The translations under genes were made by a program, and so were the position numbers. From Candidatus Thorarchaeota archaeon (GTDB lineage Archaea > Asgardarchaeota > Thorarchaeia > Thorarchaeales > Thorarchaeaceae): DNA of 64,000 nt. The notes under the pieces were generated by a model. That model saw only the letters and a program-made list of their open reading frames with translations. It was not told where the DNA came from and ran no database searches. Shown one piece after another: positions 33,335 to 37,532 of this stretch (within the stretch, counting starts at the first letter, position 1; each line of letters opens with the position of its first letter). The stretch spans positions 1 to 64,000 of the forward strand of contig JAGSHN010000030.1 in the NCBI GenBank assembly GCA_029855935.1. Direction: 5' to 3'.

Positions 33335-33528
33335 CTACTGTCACCCGCCCTTCGAGAGGCATTGCTCCTGAAAAGCATAGTCCTCAGGCGGTCGTCGTGG
33401 CCGAATGAAACGCAGTCGTTTAGGGAGGAGCGCGAGGAGAAGTTGAGCAGGTCATCAGTACCGCAGCGATCTCCCACACACGGGGCTGGAAACAATAGAG
33501 AGTGGTTTGAGATACGGGAAACCAATTT

Positions 33529-36500
33529 ATGATGACAAGGATGACCCGGACTCACAATTGCGGGGCGGACACGGTGGATATCAAGGGTCTGATGAAGAAG
33601 GTTGGAAAGGGCATCCTTGTTGCCGCCGCGAGCATGGTGGCCGGCGTTGCACTTGGTCCGATGGCAGGTGGCGCTGTCGGTAGTCTTGTCGCGAAGAAGA
33701 TGGCAGAACTCGGTGTCAGTATCGACGCTGACGCCATTGGCGACATGATTCAGAGAAGGATCAAGGATACGCCCGAGGGTATTGCAAGGCTCTTCGAGAG
33801 AAAGCAGATGGATGGACTTGCCAAGGAGATAGCGAGGGAACTCGGCATCAGGCAGGATGAGGCCTTTGCTGCACTCCAGTACGGCCTACGTGAGCTGCAG
33901 AACACGCTCTCCGGAATTGTTGAAGAGTTGAAGACCAATCAGTCCCTCCTGCTCGAGGTCCTCCACCTTGCACAAGAGTCAGACTCGAAGATTGGAGCAA
34001 TTATGGAGAACACATCACGGATTGAGGTCTCCATCAGTCAAGTAGATACGACCCTCAGATCCATCGAGCGCCAACTTGAACGCGTCTTCAAAGAGTTCTC
34101 AAAGAAGTATTCCACTGCAAGACTTGACTATGAACGGTTGCTGATAATCAGCCGCCTGCACCGACAGAATGCCATACTGGCCTCCCGCTACGGCATCTGC
34201 TACGACCCTGACCTCTATGTGCCCCGACTACGCGATGAGGAGACCTTTGAGGACTTCCTGAGCGATGTTGGTCTCACCGACAGAAACGTCTTCCTTGTGC
34301 TCGGTGACGTGGGCATGGGCAAGACGTGGTTCCTGTCGCGACTCTCCTCCATCACACTAGGTCGAGGCTATCCCTCCTTCTTTGTGACCCTCAGACAGGG
34401 GATCCGCAGCCTGACCGGGATACTGAACCGCAGTACCCTCCCCGAGTTTGTCAGTGAACTGGAGTCGGTCATCTCATCCAGTGACCAGCACGCATTCATC
34501 TTTCTTGACGGACTTGACGAGATGCCGGGTCGAGAGGCCCGGGTCATTCTTGGAAACATAGCGACCACAAGGTCCAACGCGGTGTCGTTCGTGCTGTCCT
34601 GCCGGATTGCGGACTGGACAGTTGATGATAGCATCGTACAGGCATCCCACGATTTGAGACACTCCATCTTTGAGAATCAAGAGGCGACTCACAGGGCAGC
34701 CAGTCTGGGAATCAGGACCCCGGTCTCCGTGCTGCTGACAGAGTTCACAGAACCGGAGACGAGGGCGGCAATCGAACGGTATGGCATCACGCATTCCATT
34801 CCACCAGACCTGCACTCACTCATCAGGAGGCCCTTCATCCTAAGACTGGTCGCCCAGTGGTCTGCAGCTCACGGCTCAGTCCCCTCGCCATCGTCACCCG
34901 AGTTCCTCGACCTGATGGCTGGTGACGACAACCCTGCAGACTCGATTCTCGGCAGGCTCGGTATCATCACCCAGCGTGAGACCCTTTTCGAGATCGTCAA
35001 GAGGTTCATTCTGGAGAGGCGTGATAGACTTCTGCTCTCACAGTTGCCAGTAGATCCGGAGTCGGACACCTTTCAGACCATTGTGTCCTCCGGGATATTG
35101 CAACTCAGTGTGGGCAGAGTGGGAACAAATGTGACAATCAACCAGAACTTCATCATCCCACTCATCGCCCTCACAATGGAACGATTCTCTATGATCAGCA
35201 ATGATTATGACGCACTGCGGGCCTCTCTAGAGGAGTGGCTTCCCGATGTCGCGGCCAGTGTTGAGAGGCTCCTCGGTCAACCCAAGAGCCCATTCGCTCC
35301 CATCCAGACACAGGGACGTTCGACACCTGTAGACCAAGCACAGTCCTCCACTGCGCTGCCAGACTCCACCGAGGTCGTCCCCCCAATCGGACGACTCTTG
35401 GCGGATGAAGACAAGGATGTCCGCAGCCACACAGTAGAGGGAGCGAGCAAGGCGGCCAGTCGCCTGCCGGACTCTACCGAGGTTGTCGGCCACGTTCAAT
35501 CGCGGAGACAATCAGAACCCACAGATGCTGCACAGCCTTCCATCATCCTATCGGACCCCAAAGAGATTGTCGACCTCCTCCGACCACTCCTCAGAGACGA
35601 TATGCATGTCCGCGGTGCCGCGGCGGTGGGGCTAGGCCTCGTGGCCACCGCTCTGGCGGGCTCCACAGAGATCATCGACCTGCTCCGACCACTCCTCAGG
35701 GACAAGGAACCGTATGTGCGCTATCACGCGGCCTGGGGTCTTGGTCTGGCGGCCACCACCCTGCCGAATCCCAATGAACGAGTTGACCTACTCCGACGAC
35801 TTTTCGAAGGGGTCAACCTCCATAGTGCCTCGGCGCTGGGTTTGAGTCTGGCAGCCACTTCTTTGCCGAATCCCTCGGAGCGAGTCGCAGTGATTCGTCC
35901 ACTCCTCACACACAAGAGCTCGGACAACCGCAGGGGCGCGGCGTTGGGCATGGGCATTGTGGCCACCACCCTGCCTGACCCCACAGAGGTCATCGACCTC
36001 CTTCGACCACTCCTCAGTGACGAGGACGTGGATGCCCCTGGGTACGCAGCCTTGGGCCTGAGTCTGGCGGCCACCACCCTACCGGACCCCACCAAGGTCA
36101 TCGATCTGCTCCGACCACTCCTTGACCACAAGGATGTAGATGTCCGGATACGTACTATGCGCGGCCTGAGTCTCGTGGCCACCACCCTGCCTGACCCGAA
36201 GGAGCGAGTCGGCCTGTTTCGGTCACTCTTCAGGGGGACGCACTACCAGCATAGCGCGCAGAGGGCATTGTGCCTTGGTTTGGTGGCCACTTCTTTGCCG
36301 GATTCCACATATATCGTCCATGATCTCCAAGAGACCATTGACAGACGGAAGGGACTTATGGAAATACGAGACACCCTTTTCGGCGGCATTCCATCTGACC
36401 GGATTGTCATGAATTATGCGGTGTGGGGTCTTGGTCTGGCGGCCACCACCCTGCCTGACCCGAAGAAGCGAGTTGAATTGCTCCGACCGCTCCTCAGGGA

Positions 36501-36891
36501 CAAGGACGTCCGCAAGAACGCGGCGTTTGGTATGGGCCTGGTGGCCACCACGCTGCCTGACCCGAAGGAGCGAGTCGAACTCCTCCGACCACTCCTCAGG
36601 GACAAGGACGAGGATGTCCGTGGGTACGCGGCCCTTGGCCTGGGCCTGGTGGCCACCACGCTGCCTGACCCGAGGGAGCGAGTCGAACTCCTCCGACCAC
36701 TCCTCAGGGATAAGGACTGGGCTGTCCGCAAGAACGCGGCGTTGGGCTTGGCGCTCACTTGCTACCCTGTTGGTCGGATTCCATTCGGATATTGGTCTGC
36801 GTTGCAAGACAACTTTTCGCACACTTCGGAGGTAATGCTCCCGATTGCGTTGGTGGTTCAATCATACGCAAACAAGAAGGACAGAAAATAG
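33529..36891 (+). CDS. STAND/NACHT-like NTPase with N-terminal Gly-rich hydrophobic region and C-terminal HEAT-like repeats
   Basis: Walker A GDVGMGKT, Walker B FIFLDGLDE, FVLSCR, RPFILRL; about 13 repeats; start may be GTG 33574. Confidence 0.8.
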   Translation: MMTRMTRTHNCGADTVDIKGLMKKVGKGILVAAASMVAGVALGPMAGGAVGSLVAKKMAELGVSIDADAIGDMIQRRIKDTPEGIARLFERKQMDGLAKEIARELGIRQDEAFAALQYGLRELQNTLSGIVEELKTNQSLLLEVLHLAQESDSKIGAIMENTSRIEVSISQVDTTLRSIERQLERVFKEFSKKYSTARLDYERLLIISRLHRQNAILASRYGICYDPDLYVPRLRDEETFEDFLSDVGLTDRNVFLVLGDVGMGKTWFLSRLSSITLGRGYPSFFVTLRQGIRSLTGILNRSTLPEFVSELESVISSSDQHAFIFLDGLDEMPGREARVILGNIATTRSNAVSFVLSCRIADWTVDDSIVQASHDLRHSIFENQEATHRAASLGIRTPVSVLLTEFTEPETRAAIERYGITHSIPPDLHSLIRRPFILRLVAQWSAAHGSVPSPSSPEFLDLMAGDDNPADSILGRLGIITQRETLFEIVKRFILERRDRLLLSQLPVDPESDTFQTIVSSGILQLSVGRVGTNVTINQNFIIPLIALTMERFSMISNDYDALRASLEEWLPDVAASVERLLGQPKSPFAPIQTQGRSTPVDQAQSSTALPDSTEVVPPIGRLLADEDKDVRSHTVEGASKAASRLPDSTEVVGHVQSRRQSEPTDAAQPSIILSDPKEIVDLLRPLLRDDMHVRGAAAVGLGLVATALAGSTEIIDLLRPLLRDKEPYVRYHAAWGLGLAATTLPNPNERVDLLRRLFEGVNLHSASALGLSLAATSLPNPSERVAVIRPLLTHKSSDNRRGAALGMGIVATTLPDPTEVIDLLRPLLSDEDVDAPGYAALGLSLAATTLPDPTKVIDLLRPLLDHKDVDVRIRTMRGLSLVATTLPDPKERVGLFRSLFRGTHYQHSAQRALCLGLVATSLPDSTYIVHDLQETIDRRKGLMEIRDTLFGGIPSDRIVMNYAVWGLGLAATTLPDPKKRVELLRPLLRDKDVRKNAAFGMGLVATTLPDPKERVELLRPLLRDKDEDVRGYAALGLGLVATTLPDPRERVELLRPLLRDKDWAVRKNAALGLALTCYPVGRIPFGYWSALQDNFSHTSEVMLPIALVVQSYANKKDRK
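35356..36762 (+). repeat. Intragenic tandem repeat, mostly 34-36 aa (108 nt) units
   Basis: Consensus LPDPxERVxLLRPLLxDKDxxVRxxAAxGLGLxATT; 36533-36609 and 36641-36717 differ at only 2 positions. Confidence 0.9.
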
Positions 36892-36999: not shown

Positions 37000-37380
37000 C
37001 CGAAGAGGTCCTGAGTTTCAACAGAAAAGGTGGTTCGGATTGGCGCGTCACCATCATCAACACTGAGATCACGATCCGTCGCAATGGGGATGCTTTCAGT
37101 AGCCCATCTCATCAATAGCTCTGCCGCGGGTGCAATCTCTTTGGCGATACGGGCCAACGATGAAAGCGTGGTTCGCGTGTAGAGGTCTCACTCTCCGGAC
37201 TCTCCTGCGATGAGATCAAGGCCATACAGGCTGATGCATTTACTCGATGCTTGCTCTCTACGGCCCTTCCTGAGTGTCCGCCACAATGGATTGGACGTGA
37301 AGACCGGGCCCATTGAGAATATCCTGACTAGTTGCTCCCGCACTCACGGGAGGATCTCTGAACAGGGTAACAACATATCG
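37000..37380 (-). pseudogene. cofE: Degraded second copy of cofE (C-terminal half)
   Basis: Manual translation RYVVTLFRDPPVSA..IVADTQEGP* / CISLYGLD..GE*DLYTR..SSLARIAKEIAPAAELLM..QDLF is colinear with CofE at 31874..32674; two stops and a frameshift. Confidence 0.8.
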
Positions 37381-37532
37381 GAGAGGGCGTCTTGCGCCTC
37401 AATTTCGTCTTGGCGGTCACCTGCCCTTTCAGAGACACCGCTCCCGAATGACCCCGTCCCCGGAGGTACTCCTAACCGAAAGCTTTTCACTGGAATCATA
37501 CGTGACTCTAGAAATCAACCGGGTGAGAAGAG

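Follow-up and report, generated by a model that had tools for sequence, protein, structure and literature searches.

NLR-type receptors are central to the immunity of plants, animals and fungi, and in plant CC-NLRs, HeLo proteins and MLKL oligomerization gathers helical N-terminal domains into a membrane channel. The bNACHT proteins carry within a single chain, and in this order, an effector, a NACHT module with the signature D[GAS]hDE that separates NACHT from other STANDs, and C-terminal repeats of the HEAT, leucine-rich (LRR) or TPR type; they are accessory, with effectors shuffled between relatives, and the current view is that eukaryotic NACHT genes derive from bacteria (Kibby et al., bioRxiv 10.1101/2022.07.19.500537). 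In the Avs/AVAST proteins (Avs4, 8dgf; EfAvs5, 9jap; Gao et al. 2022; PMC13581612) recognition of a foreign protein is the task of the sensor, and oligomerization activates the N-terminal effector. The NLR systems of Asgard archaea have come to notice only in counts made with generic defense-finder models (Leao et al., PMC11291487), and a 2026 preprint reports many unexplained LRR and α-solenoid proteins from these organisms (10.64898/2026.10.28.762692). A 2026 Nature survey distinguishes 589 STAND clades, and a search of its main text did not find the family treated here singled out (PMC13581612). That family is represented in a 64-kb stretch of DNA from a Candidatus Thorarchaeota archaeon (GenBank assembly GCA_029855935.1, contig JAGSHN010000030.1, positions 1 to 64,000; "the window" below), where one long open reading frame (ORF) on the forward strand encodes an NLR-like STAND protein.

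We consider it slightly better than an even bet, at roughly 55%, that this protein is a stand-alone, accessory NLR-like receptor of Asgard archaea in which ligand-triggered oligomerization would cluster membrane-active hairpins. Its order of parts is that of bNACHT, and it differs from bNACHT in belonging to an archaeal (Asgard) family with a eukaryotic offshoot, in matching no PADLOC model, in lying outside any defense island and in carrying an N-terminal domain (N-domain) that belongs to no described family. With Avs it has the STAND switch fold in common and, by analogy, perhaps the logic of activation, whereas the TPR-like sensors of Avs are replaced by HEAT/PC-like repeats and the putative effector is non-enzymatic. 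The plant CC-NLR resistosomes (ZAR1, 6j5t; Sr35; NRC4), HeLo/HET-S and MLKL resemble it in having a helical N-domain with a hydrophobic element on a STAND switch, but there is no detectable relationship between the N-domains in sequence or fold, the switch is NACHT-like as opposed to NB-ARC, and the hydrophobic element is a glycine-zipper hairpin in place of an amphipathic α1 helix.

The NACHT-type switch and its flanking domains

The first-pass annotation, made from the letters of the window alone, had described a tripartite protein, and this architecture is right: the ORF is real, every motif that had been quoted is found where it was placed, and an N-domain, a NACHT-type STAND NTPase, a low-complexity linker and an array of repeats, the presumed sensor, follow one another along the chain (Table 1). 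Within the NTPase the Walker A residues Gly-262, Gly-264, Lys-265 and Thr-266, the run L326-D-G-L-D-E331 (Walker B/NACHT signature from Asp-327) and the sensor-1 pair Cys-358 and Arg-359 are invariant in alignments of 19 and of 50 relatives, and the residues D327-G328-L329-D330-E331 provide the D[GAS]hDE signature of the NACHT clade. In an AlphaFold2 (AF2) model of residues 1-620, built on a 19-sequence alignment with a predicted local distance difference test score (pLDDT) of 81 and a predicted TM score (pTM) of 0.78, a five-stranded P-loop core is followed by helical and winged-helix parts. When this model was compared with the PDB using Foldseek, Avs4 was the top match (8dgf, E 1.2e-5), with archaeal Cdc6/ORC, NLRC4/NAIP5, NOD2, NRC4, Sr35, Apaf-1 and CED-4 among the other best matches. 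A VIA-align comparison with 48,161 chains placed NLRC4 first (8fvu_B; Z 16.6, rmsd 4.5, 335 residues aligned within model residues 198-588), ahead of the archaeal ATPases PAB2304 and SSO1545, EfAvs5 (Z 15.2), wheat and Arabidopsis NLRs, and ZAR1 (Z 12.8, on the switch part), and resistosome chains align to the model over 513-575 columns. Language-model look-alikes are NACHT clusters; a profile of residues 1-620 run against PDB sequences returned nothing meaningful. By both motif and fold, the NTPase is of the STAND class and bears the NACHT signature.

The N-domain (residues 16-235, ∼220 aa) is all-helical and specific to the family, and AF2 predicts it with a pLDDT of 87.8 and a pTM of 0.82 from an alignment of 53 sequences. 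It lies nearly always at the N terminus, immediately before the switch, and in some relatives it follows 57-745 additional N-terminal residues. The extreme is P0050/P0168 of Candidatus Borrarchaeum (1322 aa), where ∼745 residues precede the domain and the hydrophobic hairpin is thus internal. The tip of the domain is formed by this hairpin, whose predicted helices span residues 27-38 and 44-59 and which carries a continuous i+4 glycine zipper, S36-G39-G43-G47-G51-A55, in the Thorarchaeota protein. It is conserved in all 53 relatives as an uncharged run of 22-28 residues (median 24), 60% of them small, with a central Gly/Pro; lysines and arginines flank the run (medians of 4 before and 2 after), and in most relatives the KD19 hydrophobicity of 1.5-2.2 falls in the transmembrane range. 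Behind the hairpin, where a coiled coil had been proposed, AF2 predicts long helices (Table 1), which we report simply as a helical region; this stalk ends in a conserved YDPxLYVxR motif.

Modeling of four copies of the N-domain gave a score of 0.47, compared with 0.00 for the best of three controls. This value passes the score mark for such self-association models. In the calibration of that mark, 20 of the 30 proteins with structures solved as pairs of one chain attained it, as did 1 of the 23 solved as single chains; the present job departs from the calibration in its four copies and custom alignment. The four-copy runs agree in at least 37% of their contacts, and these run in register along residues 133-193, with the long helices of the stalks bundled in parallel. 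Oligomer modeling, one of the checks that the first-pass annotation had proposed, predicts in-register self-association, with a partner pLDDT of only 49-59; the models support self-association of the N-domain and do not demonstrate it.

Behind the switch, the linker is rich in Pro, Ser, Thr and Gln, as had been noted, and is predicted to be disordered, with a pLDDT below 50 across residues 586-620. Thirteen repeats follow when counted at the protein level, in keeping with the earlier estimate of about 13; a protein repeat alignment makes 10 of them canonical, the first two degenerate and one interrupted by an insertion, and TRF and direct repeat finding recover the corresponding 108-nt (36-aa) period in the DNA. 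The consensus is LPDPxERVxLLRPLLRDKDxxVRxxAAxGLGLVATTL, with the most variable positions in the segment DKDxxVRxxAAx. Model matches characterize the array as HEAT-like: Pfam HEAT_2 is matched at E 7.7e-27 (93.9 bits; cut-off 27.7), HEAT_EZ at 69.4 bits and HEAT at 44.2 bits. PC_rep also exceeds its cut-off (28.9 bits versus 21; E 1.4e-6), and among PDB sequences the repeats match artificial alphaRep HEAT-like proteins (6e-10) as well as the PC-repeat region of the proteasome subunit PSMD1/Rpn2 (2e-7 to 1e-5). The PC repeats of Rpn2/PSMD1 and the PBS-lyase-type HEAT-like repeats of alphaRep have the same 35-36-aa units with an AAxGLGL core, and unlike either of them the array here is fused to a STAND switch. 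The three 3′-most repeats share 80-86% of their DNA positions, which we take as a sign of recent duplication or homogenization. Relative to the two nearest homologs the array also differs in length by about two repeats, and its identity is 53% to P0003, where the N-domain reaches 74% and the switch 78%, and 32% to P0004, where they reach 60% and 63%; in these alignments the repeat region evolves faster than the rest of the protein.

Exchange of modules, patchy distribution and a eukaryotic offshoot

Searching 1.84 billion cluster representatives with the profile of residues 1-620 retrieved 1162 proteins with E no higher than 1e-3, of which 102 had E no higher than 1e-30. The close homologs that bear names all come from Asgard archaea (Thor-, Loki-, Njord-, Heimdall-, Borr- and Promethearchaeota). 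Their C termini are diverse: among 50 relatives 18 end in LRR, 6 in FHA, 3 in HEAT, 2-3 in WD40 and 2 in TPR domains, and the WD40 protein P0005 is sister to a HEAT-bearing paralog encoded on contig C6 of the source genome. HEAT repeats, which had been put forward as the sensor, are not borne out as characteristic of the family, in which LRRs are commonest; the repeats of the Thorarchaeota protein itself also match proteasome PC repeats.

The N terminus varies in a similar manner. Relatives that share the switch and lack the head carry in its place CHAT (P0095, P0104 and P0111), caspase (P0157), DUF4062 (P0116) or restriction-endonuclease-like HSDR_N domains. In the metagenomic proteins P0095, P0104 and P0111 a CHAT protease leads into a helical stalk, a NACHT-like switch and LRRs, and the profile match of this clade begins at position 80-140. 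It follows that only the hairpin head was exchanged and the stalk was kept, dividing the N-domain into a head (residues ∼16-105) and a stalk (∼106-235). These comparisons of aligned proteins show the sensor and the N-terminal head to be exchangeable modules of the family, and the replacement of the head in the CHAT clade is the best argument that it may serve as the output module. The proposal that the N terminus is a membrane-disrupting effector is accordingly backed in part, in that effectors are swapped at this position in sister proteins, but the N-domain matches no known fold. The head is a domain without described family and is probably directed to membranes.

The first-pass annotation had also anticipated a patchy distribution in relatives, and this is what a profile of the N-domain finds: 19 of the 301 genomes of the phylum have a match (7 of the 90 high-quality ones), spread over 13 of 70 genera, as do 8 of the 24 genomes of the same taxonomic family. 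The source genome holds three copies, old paralogs that are 42-43% identical to one another; each belongs to a different subclade of a clade of 25 members that has good support. At the locus itself, a genome of the same genus (G003, 98% complete) has the gene order trx, dsbD, cofE, g32711, adenine deaminase, as in the window, with 150 bp between g32711 and the adenine deaminase gene compared with ∼4.2 kb in the window. The ∼4.2-kb block, missing from the syntenic site of G003, consists of the STAND gene and a decayed cofE copy. The relic shares 37-44% identity with CofE and, being equally distant (37-38%) from the CofE of the source genome and that of G003, does not allow the donor or the direction of the duplication to be told. 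The two copies of an imperfect direct repeat bracket the STAND gene and the relic, matching at 26 of 33 bases in a direct scan, a value that none of 200 shuffles reached; blastn between the borders of the block detected no significant DNA similarity.

In this arrangement the STAND gene is flanked on each side by a copy of a cofE-g32711 segment, and one of the two copies is eroded. Insertion of circular DNA carrying a homologous segment by a single crossover would leave such bracketing copies; duplication followed by decay is the alternative. Patchy, multi-copy and inserted at the locus, the gene is accessory, and with its indel polymorphism and fast-evolving repeats it is not a conserved single-copy core gene with an invariant array. 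The two genomes differ at one further point, where G003 has ∼1.1 kb extra between dsbD and cofE (L027, G003:C5, 3431-4540) without counterpart in the window.

Kipferlia bialata, a free-living anaerobic eukaryote, has at least 12 diverged genes of the family. Among the 150 best profile matches, 12 proteins that share the NACHT-type switch (P0072, P0081, P0083, P0084, P0086, P0100, P0101, P0109, P0118, P0120, P0123 and P0152), all of them K. bialata (Metamonada) by their NCBI names, form one clade (SH-aLRT 96) in a quick, midpoint-rooted LG+G4 tree with many compositionally odd rows. Ten of the 12 also have UniProt and EukProt records, and UniProt names the Kipferlia relatives NACHT. At least five possess the whole N-domain, including its hydrophobic Ala/Gly/Pro segment (E 2e-26 to 1e-13 with the N-domain profile), and P0081 is 28% identical to the Thorarchaeota protein over 454 residues (E 2e-30). 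Their C termini vary, with MORN or ARM-like repeats as examples. The gene models are eukaryotic in character, with introns or fusions to eukaryotic domains: one gene (locus L033) occupies 6.2 kb for 1138 aa and adjoins an HGSNAT gene, and fusions to RNA-polymerase-I A49 and DH domains occur in other models. The Kipferlia clade nests within a 40-member clade (SH-aLRT 97) in which every other member with a name is an LRR protein of Asgard archaea, a placement that we regard as provisional. A word-based homolog search with P0072 found only P0072 and P0039 and is too insensitive to judge other eukaryotes; we found no publication describing a link between Asgard archaea and Kipferlia for this family.

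Together these data define a distinct, divergent NLR-like lineage, Asgard-centered where its members are named and missed by standard defense models, and the lineage accounts for some of the unexplained LRR and α-solenoid proteins of Asgard archaea. Outside Asgard archaea it has been seen in one eukaryote only, Kipferlia, which gives it relevance to the origin of eukaryotic innate immunity. One may go further and propose that the N-domain executes cell death in a way not described before, its glycine-zipper hairpin lying latent until the NACHT module oligomerizes and then forming a membrane channel, and that this executioner and the NACHT module arose together in Asgard archaea and passed into eukaryotes. 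We hold this to be possible but doubtful; if it were true, eukaryotic NLR-type immunity would have received an archaeal, not a bacterial, contribution, by transfer or by inheritance.

Possible action of the receptor and competing explanations

In the mechanism that we favor, the repeat array would at rest keep the ADP-bound switch closed, with the hairpin packed in or alongside the helical N-domain. A ligand, most likely a viral protein or one from another mobile element, would dock on the repeats and permit nucleotide exchange and oligomerization of the NACHT module. Oligomerization would bring the N-domains into a parallel stalk bundle with their hairpins clustered, and the clustered hairpins would enter the membrane and perturb or permeabilize it, so that the infected cell is stopped. 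Such a mechanism would be analogous, not homologous, to those of plant CC-NLR resistosomes, fungal HeLo domains and MLKL, and if the head is indeed a triggered membrane effector it would place a resistosome-like logic in the archaea that are related to eukaryotes. With its small size, the head domain lends itself to direct testing.

We infer both the immune role and the attack on membranes, the former because of the architecture, the modularity and the population pattern of the gene and not because of its genomic context, and several results weigh against this reading. Pfam and PADLOC scans of the neighbors of all three copies found no defense genes among what are housekeeping or unknown genes; no neighbor is conserved, the contexts of P0003, P0004 and both paralogs all being different, and these two closest homologs are not among recognizable defense genes. 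The PADLOC check that had been suggested matched no defense model. What PADLOC and the NCBIfam defense models returned were weak sub-threshold hits to Avs2, HyoA and EruA; Avs2 scored 23.1 bits against an NCBIfam cut-off of 1000 and E 3e-6 in PADLOC, on the NTPase part only. The switch also falls below the thresholds of the Pfam models that match it best, NACHT (PF05729; 17.2 versus 26.7 bits), nSTAND_NTPase5 (PF25199; 21 versus 34 bits) and NPHP3_N (19.3 versus 24.8 bits). Since it is below all three gathering thresholds, it represents a divergent branch missed by current Pfam models, and by these scores the NTPase lies outside every curated defense family. The paralog on contig C6 scores 31.7 bits on nSTAND_NTPase5, and among 50 relatives this model is matched at E 1e-5 or better by 10, NPHP3_N by 9 and NACHT by 4. 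For the N-domain, Foldseek found no PDB match at E 1e-3 or better, and the best VIA-align Z of 6.2 is background for helical proteins, as are the weak rows for Cry11Aa (5.9), PirB (5.7), Cry8Ea1 and pyocin S5; an ESM-atlas shape search reached a TM of 0.44 or less. When 53 N-domains were compared with Pfam, with E values as high as 1 allowed, no family was identified, and no Rx_N, HeLo, MLKL or RPW8; the matches were only coiled-coil or amphipathic-helix noise (Baculo_PEP_C, apolipoprotein, phasin, PspA, C19orf12). Where the first-pass annotation saw an immune pattern-recognition receptor, the architecture speaks for it, but no defense gene nearby, no defense model and no conserved neighbor does so.

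Last among these counterpoints, the arms of the hairpin, at ∼12-16 residues each, are too short to span a membrane alone, and the hairpin may anchor the protein permanently instead of acting as a weapon on triggering. This leads to an alternative that we judge rather unlikely, in which the protein is a membrane-tethered signaling STAND: the hairpin would be a permanent monotopic or re-entrant anchor that keeps ATPase and repeats on the cytoplasmic side of the membrane, and ligand-driven oligomers would recruit or scaffold other factors, in defense or in surveillance of membrane processes, and leave the membrane undamaged. Besides the short arms, the basic residues at both ends of the hydrophobic run fit a hairpin whose ends are both cytoplasmic; the hydrophobicity of the run, the occurrence of the domain behind long N-terminal extensions and the weak, non-significant matches to membrane- or lipid-associated families (PspA_IM30, apolipoprotein, phasin, DUF948, C19orf12) point the same way. 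However, sister proteins hold catalytic death or defense effectors (CHAT, caspase, DUF4062) at this position, not other anchors, and in the AF2 model the hairpin is predicted at a pLDDT of 78-92 within the compact N-domain, which is more like a packed latent element.

The housekeeping surroundings raise a different alternative, a non-immune regulatory STAND comparable with TEP1, NPHP3 or MalT-type switches, whose array would act as the scaffold of some complex in Asgard cell biology, with proteostasis and membrane remodeling as examples. All three copies lie among metabolic and housekeeping genes, the repeats match the PC repeats of proteasomal Rpn2/PSMD1, the C6 paralog is divergent from the gene of a Ras/Roc GTPase protein beside it, and the Nature survey emphasizes that STAND clades with and without a role in defense are interspersed (PMC13581612). 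Against this stand the patchy phyletic pattern, the variable copy number and the insertion polymorphism, together with a fast-evolving sensor region, swaps of sensors and the presence of protease and TIR-like effectors at the same position in sister proteins; none of these features would be expected of a conserved cellular machine, and we consider this explanation improbable. A basic n-region before a hydrophobic stretch at the extreme N terminus might suggest an exported protein with a Sec signal peptide or signal anchor, a reading so improbable that we rejected it: a hydrophobic run of 22-28 residues that has Gly-Pro at its center and is flanked by basic residues at either end is unlike the h-region of a signal peptide, a switch that depends on ATP would have no use in the extracellular space, and the domain is internal in some relatives, at residue 745 in P0050.

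The gene and its surroundings

The features of the locus are collected in Table 1, in which residues are numbered from the ATG that begins the longest ORF. The GTG is most likely the real start of the gene, because homologs begin at Val-16 and the public call of the same protein (P0002) is 1105 aa long. An AT-rich TTTAT element lies ∼45 nt 5′ of this GTG, overlapping the ATG, and in our own reading of the sequence fits a promoter.

Table 1. Coordinates of the STAND gene, its domains and motifs, and the elements that bracket it (positions in the window)
Feature	Residues	Position	Strand	Basis or remark
Uninterrupted ORF	1-1120	33529..36891	+	Longest ORF, from ATG
NLR-like STAND gene	1105 aa	33574..36891	+	From GTG; start by homolog alignment and database gene call P0002
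Head module of N-domain: hairpin and short helices	16-105	33574..33843	+	Replaced by CHAT protease in sister clade
Basic patch (KKVGKG) and 28-residue uncharged Gly/Ala-rich hairpin	22-59	33592..33705	+	GxxxG chain, central Gly-Pro; putative membrane-inserting element
Hydrophobic Gly/Ala motif AGVALGPMAGGAVGSLVA	38-55	33640..33693	+	Quoted in first-pass annotation
Helical stalk of N-domain	106-235	33844..34233	+	Long helices 109-136 and 162-196 (AF2); kept in CHAT-bearing relatives
P-loop nucleotide-binding domain	236-400	34234..34728	+	Walker A, Walker B/NACHT signature and sensor-1 invariant in relatives
P-loop motif GDVGMGKT	259-266	34303..34326	+	Quoted in first-pass annotation
Motif FIFLDGLDE	323-331	34495..34521	+	Quoted in first-pass annotation
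Motif LSCR	356-359	34594..34605	+	Quoted in first-pass annotation
Helical and winged-helix domains of STAND switch	401-585	34729..35283	+	AF2 model; NLRC4 match
Disordered Pro/Ser/Thr/Gln-rich linker	586-609	35284..35355	+	Composition, low pLDDT
13 tandem repeats of ∼36 aa (108 nt), HEAT-like and PC-like	610-1080	35356..36768	+	TRF, repeat search, repeat alignment, Pfam
Left copy of 33-nt imperfect direct repeat		33340..33372	.	Just outside g32711
Decayed C-terminal half of cofE		37002..37377	-	Stops and frameshift; right-hand end of STAND-bearing block
Right copy of 33-nt imperfect direct repeat		37416..37448	.	Beside relic, ∼85 nt upstream of adenine deaminase gene

The G+C fraction of the STAND gene, 0.57-0.58, shows no difference from that of the surrounding DNA, and its neighbors in the window encode an F420-0:gamma-glutamyl ligase (CofE), DsbD and a thioredoxin, an adenine deaminase and a P-type ATPase.

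Elsewhere the surroundings are of other kinds. AAA_15/AAA_21 ATPases are of a type common in defense systems, and one lies ∼2.6 kb from the gene of P0004, the homolog with 62% identity (L029:26-1573, minus strand; L030:334-1881, minus strand), with two tandem genes for 149-aa proteins in between. The paralog on contig C6 of the source genome G000 (L031:8862-12314) is divergent from the gene of a 514-aa protein with a C-terminal Ras/Roc GTPase domain (L031:7185-8729, minus strand). Directly downstream of the third copy, on contig C4 of G000 (L032:9337-12600), is a gene for a 2220-aa protein with bacterial thrombospondin type 3 (TSP3) repeats (L032:2190-8852, minus strand), with a SatD-like gene and the gene of a PIN_12-like protein of 650 aa in the vicinity.

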